A DNA stretch of 52,523 nucleotides, from the IMG/VR virus record IMGVR_UViG_2537561965_000009; one strand, written 5' to 3'. A program made the translations under genes and the position numbers. The notes under the pieces were generated by a model. It searched no databases. It saw only the letters and a list, made by a program, of their open reading frames with translations, and was not told where the DNA came from. Shown one piece after another: positions 14,705-22,157 of the stretch. How positions within the stretch are numbered: position 1 is the first letter of the stretch; every line of letters starts with the position of its first letter. This DNA is from a virus. Its lineage: Duplodnaviria; Heunggongvirae; Uroviricota; Caudoviricetes.

Positions 14705-15070
14705 ATGACTGAACGCATAGAATTTGTTTTGCCTTACCCGCCAACGGTGAACACTTACTGGCGACGTCGTGGCAGCACATATTTTGTATCAAAAGCCGGT
14801 GAGCGTTATCGCCGTGATGTGGCGCTTATTGTTCGCCAGCAGCGGCTGAAATTAAACCTGTCCGGAAGGCTGGCGATAAAGATTATTGCAGAGCCACCGG
14901 ATAAACGTCGTCGTGACCTGGACAATATCCTGAAAGCACCACTGGATGCGCTGACGCATGCCGGACTTCTCATAGACGACGAGCAGTTTGATGAAATCAA
15001 TATTGTGCGCGGTCAGCGCGTTCCTGGGGGGCGGCTGGGCGTGAAGATTTACAAAATTGAGAGTGAGTGA
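14705..15070 (+). CDS. rusA: Holliday junction resolvase RusA
   Basis: 121-aa ORF MTERIEFVLPYPPTVNTYWRRRG... with the RusA signature; overlaps the upstream stop. Confidence 0.85.
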   Translation: MTERIEFVLPYPPTVNTYWRRRGSTYFVSKAGERYRRDVALIVRQQRLKLNLSGRLAIKIIAEPPDKRRRDLDNILKAPLDALTHAGLLIDDEQFDEINIVRGQRVPGGRLGVKIYKIESE

Positions 15071-15624
15071 TCGTAAATATGATATATCCGGAAATTACAG
15101 GCAAAAGCGGCGAGCATTTACGTCTAAAAACGCTGGAAGCCGTCTGGATCCAGGGGAAATTACGGATGTGGGGGCGTTGGTCGTACATAGGTGGTGGCAA
15201 ACCAGGAAATATGTTCAATCAGTTGCTGGCATCCAAAACACTTACAAAAACTGCGATCAATGAAGCTCTGCGCAGAATAAAAAAATCAGGGATTGATAAA
15301 ACTGAGCTGGAAGCGTTTTTGCGTGAGATGATCAACAGCAAGCAAAAGAGCGGGCTGGCTTATTGTACTGATGCCGAGGCGTTATGTATCGATCGGGTAA
15401 TTAGTAAAGTGTTGGCAGAGCATCCGGGATTGATTTGTATCCTCCGACAAAGATATGAAGGGCTGGGAATGAGCAAGCTGAAAATGGCAGAACAGTTAAA
15501 AAAGAATCACCCTGACTGGAGCCTGAAAACTTGTAGAAATCGCATTGATGTTTGGTTGGCGATGGCTGAAACCATGCTTTTCCTTCCAATGTGCGTGGCA
15601 CTTCGGTGCTTTTCTGATAACTGA
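15067..15624 (+). CDS. late-gene antiterminator Q-like protein
   Basis: 185-aa ORF (GTG 15067 or ATG 15079) directly after rusA and before the late/lysis region; contains an RMWGRWS motif reminiscent of Q-type antiterminators; the call is mainly positional. Confidence 0.5.
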   Translation: MIVNMIYPEITGKSGEHLRLKTLEAVWIQGKLRMWGRWSYIGGGKPGNMFNQLLASKTLTKTAINEALRRIKKSGIDKTELEAFLREMINSKQKSGLAYCTDAEALCIDRVISKVLAEHPGLICILRQRYEGLGMSKLKMAEQLKKNHPDWSLKTCRNRIDVWLAMAETMLFLPMCVALRCFSDN

Positions 15625-15713: not shown

Positions 15714-16904
15714 ATGATATTTACACGATTGAGATTTATCAATTTGTACGCTTTTGAGGATGCAGAGCTTAACCTGTCCTATCCAAGGAAACCTGTAAAC
15801 ATGCCTCTTGATGGGGAGTTTTTGGCTGGACGGCCTAAATTTTACTATAAAAAAGTCTGTATCATAACGGGGGGAAATGCTTCAGGCAAGACGTCACTAG
15901 GGCGAATTCTTTGTGGAATTCAGGTGTTTCTAAGAACCAAAGAGTTGCGGAGTAATCTGCGAGTGAATAATAAAAATAATGATGCTTCGTTTGAAGTAGA
16001 CTTTGCTACGGAGGAACATTTTCATCATCGTTTGTATGTACGCTTTGCTACCAGTGAAGGCGGAGCGCACATAATCAAAGAAATTAAATATGGTTTTGTT
16101 CAAATAGCATTAAATGATTCTTGCTATAAAACCACAGAAAAACTGAATCAACTCTTTTCTGGAAGGGCCCCAGGAGATACAGAATATTTTTTTCAGGAAC
16201 TAGCTACTGATAGCGAACCAGTTGTATTGGAGTTTTTCAAGCAACTTAAGTTTTTTGGTGGATGGTACTATTTGTTGTCTGAAACTAAAGAAAGTACCAC
16301 TGCAATTTCAGGAATGAATAAAAATATTCTTGAAAGGATAATTCGCACTTTCGATTCAAGTATTATAGGAGTTACCGAGATGCTGGAGTCTGAAAGTGAC
16401 GGGGATGAAAATAAATCATCTGCGGTTTATCTGATTAAATTTAAAAACTCTGATTCTCTTGTCGTTACCAGTAAAGGTGAAATAATTAACTCAGACCGTC
16501 TTTCTCGAGGAACATACGAGGCAGTGACGGTAGCGCATTTTATAAGCGCTATTATCTCTGATTGTGAAAGACTAGGTAAGCAATCTCTAATACCATCAAT
16601 GACTTATTTTCTTGACGAGAAATTGGCTTATACACATTCAGAGTTAGAGCGTATGATTGTGGCGCTGATTATATCTAATTTGAAAGAAAATACTCAGTTT
16701 TTCTATACAACGCATAACATGGATATTTTTGAGTTGGATCTGCCTGTTCACTCGTTCATTTTTATTAAAAAAACGAAAGACTATTCGGAGTTTGTTGAAG
16801 CAAATTCAGTTGTTAAAAAAAATGACCGTAGCATGCGAAACGCTGTTGAGAGAGATGTCTTTGGTGTCTTACCTGACACATCATTAGTATCGGAGCTACT
16901 CTGA
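15714..16904 (+). CDS. ABC-type (AAA_21/SMC-like) ATPase, first gene of a candidate two-gene defence module
   Basis: 396 aa from ATG 15714; N-terminus MIFTRLRFINLYAFEDAELNL; Walker A ITGGNASGKTS; signature-like LSRGTYEAV; Walker B YFLDE; H-loop-like TTHN; strongly AT-rich codon usage unlike flanking phage genes; stop overlaps next start (TGATG). Confidence 0.7.
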   Translation: MIFTRLRFINLYAFEDAELNLSYPRKPVNMPLDGEFLAGRPKFYYKKVCIITGGNASGKTSLGRILCGIQVFLRTKELRSNLRVNNKNNDASFEVDFATEEHFHHRLYVRFATSEGGAHIIKEIKYGFVQIALNDSCYKTTEKLNQLFSGRAPGDTEYFFQELATDSEPVVLEFFKQLKFFGGWYYLLSETKESTTAISGMNKNILERIIRTFDSSIIGVTEMLESESDGDENKSSAVYLIKFKNSDSLVVTSKGEIINSDRLSRGTYEAVTVAHFISAIISDCERLGKQSLIPSMTYFLDEKLAYTHSELERMIVALIISNLKENTQFFYTTHNMDIFELDLPVHSFIFIKKTKDYSEFVEANSVVKKNDRSMRNAVERDVFGVLPDTSLVSELL

Positions 16905-17437
16905 TGGCGGGGTTGTCTAAAATAAGAATAATTTTTGTCGAAGGTGAAACAGAAAACTCTCTTTTTCAGAAGATGAAACAACAGAGAGTTATTGATGCCA
17001 AATCAATTGTAAAAAGAAACTTTTGGCAAGAGAGCATAAGAAATTATGCGATTACTATTCCGAAGGGAAGTGATATACTAATTGTCTTTGATAGTGATGA
17101 AGTGGAGCAATCTGCAAGATTCATTGAAAATGTAAAGTTCCTTAAAAACAGAGGGCATAAAGTTTATCTTTTGCAGCAGAAAAGAAATTTTGAGGAGGAG
17201 TTGGCCTGGTGTTGCGGAATTCCTGTAAAAAAACTAATTGCTGGGTTCTGTGCAAAAAAAACATCGGGTATAAATGATTTCAAGAGAGATTTTATTGCTT
17301 GTAACAATCAACTTTCAAAGTTACTGAAAATGGGCATGCAGGAAACTAAGTGGTTTACAAGAGATTTACATACTGTATTGGAGCCTGTTGCAAGTTTTAA
17401 GTCATCTTTTTCTAAACATTTCAGGTTAACAAGATGA
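16904..17437 (+). CDS. small TOPRIM-like protein (RloB/OLD/DUF4435-like), second gene of the candidate module
   Basis: 177-aa ORF; N-terminal IRIIFVEGETE and downstream ILIVFDSDEV give the Glu ... DxD arrangement of TOPRIM-type nuclease domains; translationally coupled to the ATPase gene. Confidence 0.6.
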   Translation: MAGLSKIRIIFVEGETENSLFQKMKQQRVIDAKSIVKRNFWQESIRNYAITIPKGSDILIVFDSDEVEQSARFIENVKFLKNRGHKVYLLQQKRNFEEELAWCCGIPVKKLIAGFCAKKTSGINDFKRDFIACNNQLSKLLKMGMQETKWFTRDLHTVLEPVASFKSSFSKHFRLTR

Positions 17438-17572
17438 TTTATTTTCTTTTTTGTTCAGTTGATTGTTTTTGTTTGTAAAATGTCTTGATTTTTTGCCAAT
17501 AAACTGTTTCAATCCAGCTACGCTTCGCAAAGCTATACCGCGAGGCGAATAGCAGACATGGACACCTGAAAG

Positions 17573-17597
17573 AACCCGCTTTATGCGGGTTTTTTTA
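17573..17597 (+). terminator. rho-independent terminator after the ATPase/TOPRIM operon
   Basis: AACCCGC-TTTAT-GCGGGTT hairpin followed by TTTTTT. Confidence 0.7.
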
Positions 17598-17719
17598 TGC
17601 CTGAAAAACGGCACAGAACATTAAACGCGCTGGTAGTTGTGAATACTGGTCTTTCAGCTTGCTGGCTTTTTCGACAAGAGGTATTGGTATGTCACGTTAA
17701 CCGGAAAAGGGAAAAAGGC

Positions 17720-17917
17720 ATGCTAAAACAGCAGGATATGACCGAAACCGCCAGAGTGGTGTTTAATGAATTAAGCGTCACCGAACCGGCGACCGTCGGG
17801 GAAATTGCGCAGAATACTTACCTTTCACGCGAACGCTGCCAGTTAATACTGACTCAGCTTGTTATGGCGGGTCTGGCAGATTATCAGTTCGGTTGTTACA
17901 GACGCCTTCCGCAGTGA
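17720..17917 (+). CDS. small hypothetical protein (possible HTH)
   Basis: 65-aa ORF MLKQQDMTETARVVFNELSVTEPATVGEIAQNTYLSRERCQLILTQLVMAGLADY... upstream of the methyltransferase. Confidence 0.4.
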   Translation: MLKQQDMTETARVVFNELSVTEPATVGEIAQNTYLSRERCQLILTQLVMAGLADYQFGCYRRLPQ

Positions 17918-18067
17918 AGGCTTTTTAATTTGTGGTAATGGGCGGCTGGTGGGTGTTAGCGGCACCTGCCAGCCATCTGCTCATGCGTTGGGGTCACAAG
18001 CAAACCTCAGGCCCATCTGCTTTGCGCAAAAGCGGTATGAGCCTATCAGAGAAGTGCTTATTGATCT

Positions 18068-19117
18068 ATGGCTAATACTGTAAAAATATCCAGTTGTGAG
18101 TTAATCAACGCTGATTGCCTGGAATTTATCCAGACCTTACCGGAAAACTCTGTCGATCTTATAGTCACAGACCCGCCATACTTTAAAGTGAAACCCGAGG
18201 GCTGGGATAACCAGTGGAAGGGCGACGATGATTACCTGAAGTGGCTGGACCAGTGTCTGGCGCAGTTCTGGCGGGTGCTGAAACCTGTCGGAAGTCTTTA
18301 CCTGTTCTGTGGTCATCGCCTGGCATCTGATATCGAAATCATGATGCGTGAACGCTTCAGTGTGCTGAACCATATTATCTGGGCGAAGCCGTCCGGACGC
18401 TGGAACGGATGCAACAAGGAAAGCCTGCGGGCGTATTTCCCCGCCACAGAGCGCATTCTGTTCGCGGAACATTATCAGGGGCCGTATCGTCCGAAAGATG
18501 CCGGGTATGCGGCGAAGGGCAGTGCACTGAAACAGCATGTGATGGCCCCGCTGATTTCTTACTTTCGTGATGCGCGCGCGGCCCTGGGGATAACGGCAAA
18601 ACAGATTGCAGATGCCACAGGAAAGAAAAACATGGTGTCGCACTGGTTCAGTGCCAGTCAGTGGCAGCTACCGAACGAAAGCGATTATCTGAAATTACAG
18701 TCGCTGTTTGCCCGGGTGGCAGAAGAGAAACATCAGCGCGGTGAACTGGAAAAGCCCCACCACCAGCTGGTGGATACGTATACGTCACTGAACCGGCAGT
18801 ATGTGGAGCTGCAGAGTGAATATAAGCATCTGCGGCGGTATTTTGGTGTGACGGCGCAGGTGCCGTACACGGATGTGTGGACACATAAACCGGTGCAGTT
18901 CTATCCCGGGAAACATCCGTGCGAAAAACCGGCAGAAATGCTGCAGCAGATAATCAGCGCAAGCAGTCGTCCGGGAGACCTGGTTGCAGATTTTTTTATG
19001 GGCTCAGGTTCAACGGTAAAAGCTGCACTGGCGCTCGGGCGTCGTGCGATTGGCGTTGAACTGGAGACCGGACGTTTTGAGCAGACAGTCAGGGAAGTTC
19101 AGGATTTAATCGTTTGA
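18068..19117 (+). CDS. DNA methyltransferase (N6-adenine/N4-cytosine, beta class), apparently orphan
   Basis: 349-aa ORF with motif IV DPPY near the N-terminus and motif I FFMGSGST near the C-terminus; no adjacent restriction endonuclease gene seen. Confidence 0.8.
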   Translation: MANTVKISSCELINADCLEFIQTLPENSVDLIVTDPPYFKVKPEGWDNQWKGDDDYLKWLDQCLAQFWRVLKPVGSLYLFCGHRLASDIEIMMRERFSVLNHIIWAKPSGRWNGCNKESLRAYFPATERILFAEHYQGPYRPKDAGYAAKGSALKQHVMAPLISYFRDARAALGITAKQIADATGKKNMVSHWFSASQWQLPNESDYLKLQSLFARVAEEKHQRGELEKPHHQLVDTYTSLNRQYVELQSEYKHLRRYFGVTAQVPYTDVWTHKPVQFYPGKHPCEKPAEMLQQIISASSRPGDLVADFFMGSGSTVKAALALGRRAIGVELETGRFEQTVREVQDLIV

Positions 19118-19166
19118 AACGGATGAGATTGCAGAATTAATTACGCACCATTATTATTCTGCTCCC

Positions 19167-19242
19167 GGCCCTTTAGCTCAGTGGTGAGAGCGAGCGACTC
19201 ATAATCGCCAGGTCGCTGGTTCAAATCCAGCAAGGGCCACCA
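19167..19242 (+). tRNA. ileZ: tRNA with CAU anticodon, ileX-like (tRNA-Ile2)
   Basis: 76-nt cloverleaf GGCCCTT...AAGGGCCACCA with anticodon loop CUCAUAA; closely resembles E. coli ileX as recalled; same position as ileZ in Stx-type phages. Confidence 0.8.
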
Positions 19243-19249
19243 TCACATA

Positions 19250-19326
19250 CCGCCATTAGCTCATCAGGAAAGAGCGCCAGCCTTCGAAGCTGGTTGCGCG
19301 GGGTTCAAGTCCCCGATGGCGGTCCA
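19250..19326 (+). tRNA. argN: tRNA-Arg (anticodon UCG)
   Basis: 77-nt cloverleaf with acceptor CCGCCAT/ATGGCGG, anticodon loop CUUCGAA, T-arm CGGGGTTCAAGTCCCCG and encoded CCA. Confidence 0.75.
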
Positions 19327-19339
19327 TTATCTGCATCAT

Positions 19340-19416
19340 GCGTTGTTAGCTCAGCCGGACAGAGCAATTGCCTTCTAAGCAATCGGTCACTGGTTCGAAT
19401 CCAGTACAACGCGCCA
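19340..19416 (+). tRNA. argO: tRNA-Arg (anticodon UCU)
   Basis: 77-nt cloverleaf GCGTTGT...ACAACGCGCCA with anticodon loop CUUCUAA. Confidence 0.8.
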
Positions 19417-19707
19417 CACTTATTTTCCCTGGCTCGCTTTTGTGGGCCTTTTTTTTAAATGTCTCACAATTTAGGCGGTTGACTGTTGTCTGGTTTGCGG
19501 GGAGTTTGTTAAAAGAAACTGGCATGGTGAATCCCCCTGTGCGGAGGGGCAATCAGCGAGTAGGTATATGGGATAATCGCGGATTCAGGTGCTGGTACTG
19601 AATTCACCGGGAGGCACCCGGCACCATGCAATGGCACATAGCGCCACTCTCCAGCCCCTCTCCGGAGGGGCTGTTTATATTGATTTTGTCAGATGTGAGT
19701 AAACTGC

Positions 19708-20043
19708 TTATGGACTTTGTTGTTTTAGCCCATAAGGACATATTTGCAGAGTGCAACGGTTATTAAAGCATTCATTCAATACGTTATCTGTATTTGTAGG
19801 GCATTCCTGGCTGTTTTTGATTAAATTCCAGAATGTTTTATTGAATGGTACTACGTTGTAAATGGTTACAGGTAGCACTTTGTTATTGAGCATGATGCCT
19901 GTGTGAGTCAGTGTAAATATACTTTCAGGAGGTAAGAAAGCATCCGATTGATACCAGATTATTAATTTTATTTTACTCCATATGACTGAAAAAGATATTC
20001 CGCATGATGGCTGGATAACTGTATCAATCACAATCCACTTCAT
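19708..20043 (-). CDS. orphan hypothetical protein at the stx-equivalent position
   Basis: 111-aa ORF in a very AT-rich segment between the tRNA genes and the esterase gene, opposite in orientation to the late operon; AAGGA-like SD; no family recognised. Confidence 0.35.
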
Positions 20044-20303
20044 TTAGTTTCCTTGTTTATGCCTTGCTGGTGATGTTCTGAAAAGTATAAATGATATTTT
20101 TGATTGTAAACCATAGAGCAGAATTATTTTTCTGATGTTGTTTATTGTTTATTTAAATGCAGGGTGGTTTATATCTCGTCTTGTAGTTTATCCATGCATA
20201 TCTGCTTGATGATGAGGTTTTTATTTAAGGTATGGTTTTGTGTTTTTTCTGTATTACATGTCAGGTATTTTAAAGAATCATTTTTCAGATGGTGGAAAGA
20301 ACC

Positions 20304-22157
20304 ATGGCATTTAAACACTATGATGTTGTCAGGGCGGCGTCGCCGTCAGATCTTGCGGAAAAGCTGACACATAAACTGAAAGAGGGCTGGCAGCCGTTTG
20401 GTAGTCCGGTGGCCATAACCCCTTATACCCTGATGCAGGCGATTGCAGCAGAAGGTGATGTGGTCGTCAGTGGTGCAACTGAGCCGGAGTGGTACTACGT
20501 CATCGTACTGGCCGGGCAATCCAATGCCATGGCTTACGGTGAAGGGCTTCCGCTTCCGGATTCTTACGATGCGCCCCACCCACGCATTAAGCAACTGGCC
20601 CGTCGCAACACAGTGACTCCCGGTGGTAAAGCATGCGCATTTAACGACATCATTCCGGCAGACCACTGCCTGCATGATGTTCAGGATATGAGCGCACTGA
20701 ATCATCCGAAGGCAGACCTGAGCAAAGGGCAGTACGGCTGTGTCGGCCAGGGCTTACATATTGCCAAAAAACTGCTTCCGTATATCCCGAATAACGCGGG
20801 GATCCTGCTGGTACCATGCTGTCGTGGTGGTTCGGCATTCACCCAGGGCGCGGAGGGGACATTCAGTGCGGACACGGGGGCCAGCCAGGATTCGGCACGC
20901 TGGGGTGTGGGTAAACCGTTATATCAGGACCTGATCGCACGCACCAAAGCGGCATTACAGAAGAACCCGAAAAATGTGTTGCTGGCGGTGTGCTGGATGC
21001 AGGGCGAATTTGACATGAGCGCTGCCACCTACGCACAGCAACCGGACCTGTTCACGGCCATGCTGAAGCAGTTCCGTACTGACCTTTCCGGATTTAACGC
21101 GCAGTGCCATGGCGGCAGTGCTGCAGTTGTACCGTGGATTTGTGGCGACACGACGTATTACTGGAAAAACACATACGGCACACAGTATGACTCCGTCTAC
21201 GGCGCATACAAAAACAGGGAGAGCGACAACGTTTTCTTTGTGCCGTTCATGACCGACGGTAACGGCAACAACACGCCCACCAACTTACCGGCAGAAGACC
21301 CGGATATTGCTGATGCAGGTTATTACGGCGCGCAATCCCGTAGTAATGGTAATTGGGTATCGTCAAACCGCCCGACACATTTCAGTTCATGGGCGCGCAG
21401 GAGCATTATTCCGGATCGTATGGCAACCGCTATTCTGAACGCAGCCGGGCGCACCTCAGCCTTCATCAGTGGTAAGGCACCGGAAATCAAACCCTCGCCC
21501 GGCGTCGACACGCCATCGGGGCCGTCTGAAGATGCATCCGTACGCACAATCTCCCTGTTGCCGACAGCCGGAGAGGCTGCTGCGCAGGGCTGGACCATTA
21601 AGGACGGCGGAATTCAGTTGTCGGGTGGTGTATTTAAGATCACCAAGCAGAGCAATAAAACTTGGTCCCTGATGCATCCGGTGGATGACGCAGTCTCCCT
21701 GCTGACACGGGGTGGCAGACTGAGCTGTAAGTTTCGACTGTCAGGCGCACTGACCAACAACCAGTTCGGTCTGGGAATTTATCTGTATACCGATGTAGCG
21801 TTACCTGACGTCGTGGCGATGACCGGGACTGGTAACCCGTTCCTGATGTCGTTCTTCACCCAGACCACAGACGGCAAACTGAATCTGATGCATCACAGGA
21901 AAGCAGGAAACACAAAGTTGGGCGAGTTCGGGAATTACAGTAACGACTGGCAGACGCTGGAGCTGGTGTTCACCGCCGGCAGTGCCACGGTTACTCCGAA
22001 ACTGAATGGAGTGGCTGGCCCGGCATTCCAGGTCATAAAAGACAGTCTGACACTGGGGCTGAATGCGCTGACGCTGACGGATATTACCAAAAATGCAGCG
22101 TATGGCGTTGAGATAGAAAGTCTGGTGCTGGAGATAAATGCACCAGCATCATCATAA
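20304..22157 (+). CDS. prophage sialate O-acetylesterase (NanS-p-like; DUF1737 N-terminus plus SGNH/SASA esterase domain)
   Basis: 617 aa from ATG 20304 (alternative ATG 20289); N-terminal MAFKHYDVVRAASPSDLAEKL...; esterase motif VLAGQSNAMAYGEG; C-terminal beta-rich probable carbohydrate-binding region; same position as nanS-p downstream of stx in Stx phages. Confidence 0.75.
   Translation: MAFKHYDVVRAASPSDLAEKLTHKLKEGWQPFGSPVAITPYTLMQAIAAEGDVVVSGATEPEWYYVIVLAGQSNAMAYGEGLPLPDSYDAPHPRIKQLARRNTVTPGGKACAFNDIIPADHCLHDVQDMSALNHPKADLSKGQYGCVGQGLHIAKKLLPYIPNNAGILLVPCCRGGSAFTQGAEGTFSADTGASQDSARWGVGKPLYQDLIARTKAALQKNPKNVLLAVCWMQGEFDMSAATYAQQPDLFTAMLKQFRTDLSGFNAQCHGGSAAVVPWICGDTTYYWKNTYGTQYDSVYGAYKNRESDNVFFVPFMTDGNGNNTPTNLPAEDPDIADAGYYGAQSRSNGNWVSSNRPTHFSSWARRSIIPDRMATAILNAAGRTSAFISGKAPEIKPSPGVDTPSGPSEDASVRTISLLPTAGEAAAQGWTIKDGGIQLSGGVFKITKQSNKTWSLMHPVDDAVSLLTRGGRLSCKFRLSGALTNNQFGLGIYLYTDVALPDVVAMTGTGNPFLMSFFTQTTDGKLNLMHHRKAGNTKLGEFGNYSNDWQTLELVFTAGSATVTPKLNGVAGPAFQVIKDSLTLGLNALTLTDITKNAAYGVEIESLVLEINAPASS

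Follow-up and report, generated by a model that had tools for sequence, protein, structure and literature searches.

A predicted two-state leader RNA precedes the M.EcoGII-type adenine methyltransferase gene in the late operon of lambdoid prophages

The adenine methyltransferase M.EcoGII is widely used as a tool enzyme, in chromatin footprinting, in MadID and in RNA methylation, and to our knowledge neither its natural regulation nor its biological role has been worked out. Here we analyse the locus of a closely related gene in the IMG/VR virus record IMGVR_UViG_2537561965_000009, a stretch of 52,523 nucleotides (nt) that we refer to as the window and to whose positions all coordinates refer; the elements of the locus, from the antiterminator gene to the tRNA genes, are all on the plus strand. 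M.EcoGII itself (GenBank EGT69837.1), a protein of 349 amino acids (aa), is prophage-encoded in E. coli O104:H4 C227-11 and methylates adenine whatever the context, up to 99% of deoxyadenosine (dA), its substrates including single-stranded DNA, DNA:RNA hybrids and RNA (PMC5778455). DNA methylated by M.EcoGII resists many restriction enzymes, and protection of phage DNA against restriction is the role already proposed for the M.EcoGII family (PMC5778455). M.EcoGI, which differs from M.EcoGII at 16 of 349 positions, is like M.EcoGII unexpressed in lysogens, and constitutive expression is deleterious to cells (PMC5778455). The window enzyme has in common with this pair its length of 349 aa, the order of its motifs, a predicted four-helix target-recognition domain, a lambdoid prophage as carrier and the lack of a nuclease; the promoter context, the upstream winged-helix gene and the leader that we report below are not described in the M.EcoGII publication (PMC5778455). 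Among other phage orphan adenine methylases, the Dam enzymes of T4, P1 and 933W are GATC-specific, and those of the Hia5 type are alpha-class and promiscuous (PMC5778455). The window enzyme resembles all of these in being phage-borne, in having no nuclease and in its presumed anti-restriction role, and differs from them in being of the beta class and, judged by orthology, context-free.

As for the control of such genes, the C proteins of Type II restriction-modification systems (such as C.PvuII and C.AhdI) act through C-boxes, as Xre-type helix-turn-helix dimers, to time the expression of the nuclease, while in the lambda cIII mRNA, in hok and in the MS2 maturation-gene leader two exclusive mRNA folds set access to the start codon and limit a dose-sensitive or toxic product. 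The window resembles the former in having a gene for a small DNA-binding-type protein just 5' of, and co-oriented with, the modification gene, but this protein folds as a winged helix, has no nuclease gene beside it and can be dispensed with, as ~19% of loci show; it resembles the latter in its predicted two-state leader, which is nevertheless unrelated to them in sequence and combines a three-way junction with a long-range anti-start helix, by a mechanism that we infer. In the Gifsy-1 IsrK-orf45-anrP locus a short RNA is made from the Q-controlled late promoter, and the read-through mRNA is inactive, alternative structures hiding its ribosome-binding site (PMC4825925). StxS of Stx phages is also a short RNA from the Q-controlled late promoter, ended at the terminator tR' (PMC7547250). 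The short RNA predicted in the window is a positional analogue of StxS, IsrK and lambda 6S RNA; however, and in contrast to the IsrK locus, where an anti-repressor is controlled, the putative bistable element of the window is a separate leader, 340 nt further downstream, before a methyltransferase. Taken together, the data presented here make it probable that the window gene is an M.EcoGII orthologue carried as a late-operon gene, held off in the lysogen and gated by its leader after induction. With less assurance, and only somewhat in favour, we propose that the leader is a new bistable cis-regulatory RNA dedicated to M.EcoGII-family methyltransferases, by which the enzyme is made briefly from nascent Q-antiterminated transcripts or on a signal.

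The methyltransferase gene (18068..19117) encodes 349 aa and matches Pfam PF01555 (N6_N4_Mtase) over profile positions 1-219 of 221, scoring 152.2 bits where the cut-off is 26.7 (E=2.7e-44). Its motifs are in the beta-class order, DPPY (residues 35-38; nt 18170-18181) preceding F-M-G-S-G (residues 310-314; nt 18995-19009), with the predicted target-recognition domain at ~18545-18778, and the solved structures nearest to it are those of the beta-class methyltransferases RsrI, CcrM, MboIIA and DpnA. No nuclease gene adjoins it, its neighbours being an AbiLi/AbiLii-like pair, the winged-helix open reading frame (ORF) and tRNAs, and an endonuclease gene beside the methyltransferase gene, as in a Type II restriction-modification (R-M) system, is therefore absent. 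In coordinates, PF01555 match, motif order and the lack of an adjacent nuclease, the enzyme is thus what a first-pass annotation, made by a model from the letters and their reading frames, had taken it to be: an orphan beta-class methyltransferase (DPPY, then FxGxG) with no restriction partner.

When compared with M.EcoGII, also of 349 aa, the window protein is identical at 327 of 350 aligned positions. The reference was a machine-read copy of Supplementary Table S1 of PMC11551740 with visible misreadings (NHHIW, RRRA, TKVPQ), and about 5 of the differences appear to be artefacts of this reading, which brings the count to roughly 331/349 and the overall identity to ~93-95%. Three differences fall inside residues 160-237, the predicted four-helix target-recognition domain. 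By its sequence, the window allele is within the spread of the family, its ~18 residues of distance from M.EcoGII being like the distance between M.EcoGI and M.EcoGII; phage 1720a-02, the published carrier of a very similar enzyme, has 93% nucleotide identity to this region, and the 90%-identity protein cluster of the methylase has 5,932 members. The 349-aa ORF is, on this comparison, an orthologue of M.EcoGII, a new allele of a characterised family and hence an ordinary enzyme, which would methylate adenine in any context without sequence specificity and would be silent in the lysogen. This changes what should be looked for. The first-pass annotation had expected a modified motif to be found by comparing the methylomes of a lysogen and a cured strain, and an orthologue of M.EcoGII has no recognition sequence; since M.EcoGI and M.EcoGII are unexpressed in lysogens (PMC5778455) and the enzyme is motif-less, a lysogen methylome is expected to show nothing and would probably be a false negative for a functional gene. 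Its further suggestion, that the enzyme protects phage DNA from restriction, agrees with what had already been proposed for the enzyme family (PMC5778455).

What sets this locus apart is the spacer of ~135 nt immediately 5' of the methylase (17934..18067), which in an alignment across many genera is the best-conserved part of the module: this leader has a median nucleotide identity of 0.79 to the window copy, compared with 0.70 for the small ORF, 0.72 for the methylase and 0.46 for the third codon positions of the methylase. One-nucleotide indels exclude that the leader is coding. A covariance model built from 97 distinct leader sequences matches the window once, at 17925-18073 with 144.7 bits, and over 942 kb it matches each locus exactly once; in a leader-pattern search of viral contigs the methylase start lay 62-63 nt beyond the pattern in 117 of the 120 loci found, the remaining three being two contig-end truncations and one internal deletion. 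The leader is also present in 56 sequenced-phage records, among them phiP27, SfV, mEp460, cdtI and phiNP, with an annotated methylase adjoining or overlapping it in nearly all cases listed. Permissive filters gave no Rfam match to the leader at E<=1 in 17600-19160, and the papers searched on the Stx-phage pR' region, StxS and the Pas small RNAs mention neither the methylase nor the small ORF nor the leader, which appears to be undescribed. The methylase start that follows it has no Shine-Dalgarno sequence.

In the window a 45-codon upstream ORF (17941-18075, plus strand), whose TAA overlaps the methylase start (AUGGCUAA), was weighed as a device for translational coupling like orf45 of Gifsy-1, but it is probably not one that is conserved among the leaders: its length varies, with 7 codons for most genera, 18 for Providencia and 33 for the other type of E. 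coli, and indels shift its frame. As a separate observation, in one IMG/VR contig (L101:2133-2283) an internal deletion has joined the leader straight to C-terminal methylase sequence (..PAEMLQQI..), so that the leader is kept and the enzyme inactivated.

Covariation supports two alternative folds of the leader RNA. Fold A is a three-way junction formed by P1 (17939-17943/18011-18015), P2 (17944-17955/17963-17974) and P3 (17976-17984/17996-18004), and then P4 (18017-18023/18029-18035). Fold B keeps P2 and P4 and adds the helices B0 (17938-17943/17979-17984), B3 (17992-17996/18062-18066), B2 (17998-18002/18055-18059) and B1 (18009-18012/18041-18044), of which B3 stops 2 nt 5' of the methylase AUG. 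In the model-based alignment, with which MAFFT alignments agree, 85% of cells are paired under fold A, compared with 26-46% in slid controls, and 13 pairs have both sides changed, compared with 5.7+-1.2 in shuffles (0/500); under fold B the corresponding values are 95% of cells paired, compared with 22-40%, and 5 pairs, compared with 2.1+-0.9 (2/500). The folds are mutually exclusive, because they have strands in common whose partners covary in each. Position 18002, for example, pairs with 17978 in fold A, where CG, AU, UA and UG are seen, and with 18055 in fold B, where GC, AU and GU are seen. The frequent G-U pairs make sense for a sense-strand RNA only. A third helix near the start (ATCAG/CTGAT) was discarded, since variation breaks its pairing with no compensation.

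The two folds also differ in stability. In the minimum-energy fold of the full-length RNA, computed for 95 distinct leaders, the B helices are present in 67-77 and P1 or P3 in 12, whereas P1 forms in 69 of the 95 when the 5' domain is folded by itself. Fold B is the more stable in 77 of the 95 (median 6.1 kcal/mol), and in the window leader the values are -63.1 kcal/mol for fold B and -50.6 kcal/mol for fold A. Relatives of the module in Xenorhabdus and Photorhabdus (loci L048-L082), with methylases of 62-67% identity and the small ORF kept, have a short spacer with a P2-like hairpin only, followed by a U-rich tract and, in some, a normal GAGG Shine-Dalgarno sequence, and they may represent a different control of the same gene. 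With that hairpin only and with marginal model scores, these loci were uninformative as an independent test of start sequestration.

The Q-type late antiterminator gene (15067..15624; Pfam DUF1133, 2e-98, and Phage_antitermQ; phrog_753, 'anti-termination protein Q-like', 9e-75) is followed by the AbiL-like pair, an ATPase of 396 aa and a protein of 177 aa (15714-17437; PADLOC: AbiLi at 4.3e-25, weakly AbiLii or AriA), and then by a putative late promoter pR' (17485..17513), made of TTGATT (17485-17490), a 17-nt spacer and TTCAAT (17508-17513). Transcription would start near 17520 and give a short RNA (17520..17597) ending at tR', a strong hairpin with a U-run at 17567-17597. The pR' hexamers were read from the sequence, and pR' and tR' were established by homology and folding, a consensus promoter and terminator scan having reported neither the pR' candidate nor tR'. 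The short RNA folds strongly (-30.9 kcal/mol for an RNA of 81 nt, z = -5.5), and a GC hairpin with a T-run is found at the tR' position in every related locus, with differing sequences; homology to the Stx phages begins at ~17585, at the same hairpin, and a match of the short RNA to isrK is weak and below threshold (17522-17595, 21.6 bits, E=0.08; Rfam). A second terminator-like hairpin, GCCTTC-CGCAGT-GAAGGC with a T-run (17904..17931; terminator scan), overlaps the stop codon of the small ORF and is weak, at -9 kcal/mol; related loci also have a hairpin there, of other sequence. Lysis and terminase genes lie downstream, and the order of the lambdoid late operon, with Q, promoter, short RNA, terminator and late genes, is present. 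The arrangement corresponds to the classical Q / pR' / short RNA / tR', with predicted promoter activity and predicted dependence on Q.

Seven phage loci with a Q of the same family (DUF1133, phrog_753) and without AbiL-like genes show how this arrangement came to be interrupted. In them the Q stop is followed within 30-110 nt by a homologue of 17477-17725, which includes TTGATT-17-TTCAAT and the conserved initial transcribed region; the AbiL-like pair is, for this reason, an insertion between Q and its promoter, and the small ORF and the methylase are therefore the first two genes of the late operon. The methylase module thus belongs to the conserved late operon and stands outside the AbiL-like defence insertion, contrary to the first-pass annotation, which had placed both in one cargo block. 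A late-operon position would also account for the published finding that lysogens do not express M.EcoGI and M.EcoGII. The module, in the order small ORF, methylase, tRNA(CAT), tRNA-Arg and tRNA-Arg, recurs directly 5' of stx2AB in Stx2a_WGPS2, phiP27 and 1720a-02, and it keeps its place between Q and stx in Stx2 phages whose Q genes are of three unrelated kinds and whose cargo varies. The DNA from Q to the small ORF differs among them, with two reverse-strand genes in Stx2a_WGPS2, a GIY-YIG gene in phiP27 and the ATPase and the 177-aa protein in the window, and the slot between Q and the late promoter is a cargo hotspot.

Three further observations concern this region. The short pR'-tR' RNA, of ~77 nt, is a candidate small RNA of the StxS/IsrK type, which would be made constitutively in the lysogen, and a -10-like TATACC at about +15 to +20 of it may be a sigma-dependent pause element. 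A block between tR' and the small ORF (17656..17695; cTTGCTG-N17-TATTGG-TATGTCAC) is alike across 19 loci of several genera; examined as a sigma-70 promoter, as a LexA box and as an RNA hairpin (fold z = -0.39), it fitted none of them.

These features suggest how the gene could be carried. The order of the elements is Q, the AbiL-like pair, the putative pR', the predicted 77-nt short RNA to tR', the winged-helix ORF, the weak hairpin, the leader, the methyltransferase, ileZ-argN-argO and, beyond these, the genes for the esterase and for lysis. As long as the prophage is not induced, pR' transcripts would end at tR', and any read-through message would adopt fold B, its most stable form, in which GGUCA/UGAUC and AAGCA/UGCUU are paired just 5' of the AUG that has no Shine-Dalgarno sequence, so that the toxic enzyme would be kept off. 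After induction, Q-modified polymerase would pass both terminators, the 5' part of the leader would first form fold A with the start region open, and ribosomes would load while the transcripts are still nascent and the leader has yet to relax to fold B; alternatively, a factor might hold the leader in fold A. The enzyme would then methylate the adenines of replicating phage DNA, in any context, before packaging, and the progeny would resist Type I, II and III restriction sensitive to N6-methyladenine (m6A) in the next host. The most economical reading of the leader is that of a translational brake, whose ground state hides the start and whose earlier, less stable fold exposes it.

Several points weigh against this proposal. 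The non-specificity of the enzyme rests on ~94% identity, with three target-recognition-domain residues different, and the M.EcoGII copy was machine-read from a PDF, so that the identity figure is uncertain by ~1%. In the upstream region, the assignment of pR' relies on position and homology; TTCAAT makes a weak -10 hexamer, and the promoter was not picked up by the consensus scan. As regards the leader, P1 is almost invariant, with one compensatory case (L010), so that fold A is supported mainly by P2 and P3, and of the 9 pairs of P3 only 6 form in the E. coli-type leader of the window; the shuffle controls, moreover, leave phylogenetic relatedness in place. The order of folding, A and then B, and its effect on translation are deduced from thermodynamics alone, and a promoter may lie within the leader. 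Finally, methylase relatives in Xenorhabdus and Photorhabdus are without the leader, which is thus not essential to the enzyme family.

The small gene at the head of the module (17720..17917) encodes the 65-aa protein that PGAP annotates as hypothetical protein WP_000917767.1 and that belongs to phrog_331. It has an AAGG Shine-Dalgarno sequence 5 nt upstream and is under purifying selection, with a median ratio of nonsynonymous to synonymous substitution rates (dN/dS) of 0.135 against the window copy in 82 comparisons. AlphaFold2 models it as a winged helix-turn-helix (pLDDT 92.7) of topology H1-b-H2-H3-b-b, and the DSSP assignment on the model (H9-16, bridge 24-25, H26-33, H37-49, E53-56, E59-62) fits H1-S1-H2-H3-S2-wing-S3. 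Its Foldseek neighbours are generic winged-helix proteins, namely MarR/OhrR, IclR domains and the N-terminal domains of small-molecule O-methyltransferases (TM 0.77-0.80), no match to the model reaching E<=0.001; in Pfam it has a TrmB match of 18 bits (E=0.0026), under the cut-off of 25.6, and no HTH_3 or Xre match. The family is narrow, with 61 representative clusters among 1.84 billion proteins.

The linkage of this gene to the methylase is frequent and not obligate. A homologue, down to 37% identity, lies 92-200 nt 5' of the methylase in 65 of 80 species-level loci of the Enterobacterales and is present in 110 of the 112 viral contigs retrieved via the leader, and in the other 15 of the 80 loci (~19%) it is replaced by unrelated ORFs, the methylase and the leader being unchanged. 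The DNA 5' of the small ORF showed no repeated operator, and the 17656-17695 block is unlike the tandem palindrome of a C-box. The first-pass annotation had proposed a helix-turn-helix regulator, possibly controller-like, for this ORF: the methylase-linked winged-helix gene is real, but a controller of the C-protein type it is not, because it has a winged helix instead of an Xre fold, has no nuclease to control and is dispensable in ~19% of loci. The protein would instead be a frequent, dispensable accessory of the module, and our best guess, from the model, is that it is a predicted DNA-binding factor of the late operon.

The same evidence bears on the other ways in which the locus could be understood. 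One is that the enzyme is a sequence-specific orphan methyltransferase, active in the lysogen with a new motif and set by the helix-turn-helix protein acting as an R-M controller (C) protein. The two genes are indeed tightly linked and co-oriented, the small protein has a DNA-binding-type fold, and a near-palindrome in the spacer, GCTTTGCGCAAAAGC (GCTTTAGCGCTAAAGC in relatives), would be a candidate operator; however, the enzyme is ~94% identical to one that is non-specific and silent in lysogens, the protein is a winged helix and not of the Xre type, no nuclease gene is present, two terminators stand between pR' and the methylase, and the 15 of 80 loci without the small ORF keep the palindrome and the whole leader unchanged. 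We regard this as very unlikely. Rather unlikely, in our judgement, is that the spacer is conserved as DNA, as a promoter, operator or protein site, the apparent RNA helices being a by-product of palindromes that proteins bind. In favour of this, many loci have a perfect DNA palindrome in P4, compensatory-looking changes are seen in palindromes too, and a DNA-binding-type protein is encoded next door. Against a DNA site, several positions have G-U or U-G as their commonest state or as a frequent one, and only a sense-strand RNA tolerates this; the helices have long asymmetric loops and are nested in a three-way junction; two alternative partners, both covarying, exist for one strand; one helix stops 2 nt before the AUG; the consensus scan found no promoter-like site in the spacer; and the leader sequences are the same with or without the winged-helix gene.

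A leader that is indeed an RNA could still respond to a ligand or a factor, as a riboswitch or as the target of a trans-acting RNA or protein, for instance the short pR' RNA in the manner of IsrK. A three-way junction with many invariant unpaired bases is what such a switch might look like, the less stable fold A would need stabilising, and IsrK of Gifsy-1 activates translation of a read-through mRNA by shifting two alternative structures. We give this a low probability, as no riboswitch in Rfam matches, the invariance can be explained by each strand pairing with two partners, and the short pR' RNAs vary with the type of Q whereas the leader is constant; for the same reason an 8-nt complementarity between the short pR' RNA and P4, noted by eye, was dismissed. 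The last alternative concerns not the control but the purpose of an M.EcoGII-like enzyme, whose main role might be other than anti-restriction: takeover or killing of the host by global methylation of DNA and RNA, a replication or packaging mark as with P1 Dam, or phage exclusion. M.EcoGII, which is harmful to cells that express it, acts on RNA, DNA:RNA hybrids and single-stranded DNA as well, and the gene would be expressed alongside lysis and virion genes, when host survival is no longer relevant. The sole published proposal of function is, on the other hand, protection from restriction, and the methylated DNA resists many enzymes in vitro. We therefore hold another main role to be unlikely, although it is compatible with the late-operon, leader-gated gene that we favour, the roles not being mutually exclusive.

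If the leader is bistable as proposed, it would be the missing reason for the silence of M.EcoGI and M.EcoGII in lysogens and for the difficulty of cloning them. The place in the late operon and the two-state leader together give a testable account of how a phage safely carries a toxic methylase, and they suggest practical routes to the controlled expression of M.EcoGII-type enzymes. This regulatory anatomy, in which a late gene stands behind two terminators, is linked to a winged-helix gene and has a covarying leader over its start codon, appears to be new to description and offers a direct experimental handle on phage tolerance of a context-free adenine methylase. In Stx2 phages the module lies 3' of pR' and 5' of the toxin genes and shares a transcript with stx, so that many stx2 mRNAs have the leader and terminators in their 5' region.

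The window represents a lambdoid prophage of E. coli and has 100% identity to E. coli O166:H15 JNE21-009. The segment 17597-19117 is identical at 100% in four RefSeq chromosomes, that of JNE21-009 among them, and was found in 1,903 of 5,426 complete E. coli genomes (at least 80% coverage). Beyond the methylase are three tRNA genes (19167..19416; ARAGORN and Rfam), ileZ, with a CAT anticodon, argN and argO. The first of them (19167-19242) is Met (CAT) according to ARAGORN and tRNA-Ile (ileZ) in RefSeq and Stx-phage records, a label that for this anticodon implies its lysidine modification. Just 3' of the trio is a full-length STnc100 small RNA (19493-19682, plus strand; Rfam RF02076, 132 bits, E=2.6e-30). 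It is followed, in the place where Stx2 phages have stx, by a reverse-strand gene for an IraM-like anti-adapter (19708-20043), and beyond this by an esterase gene of the SASA family (NanS-p-like; 20289-22157). The layout of the prophage is that of an Stx phage without stx.

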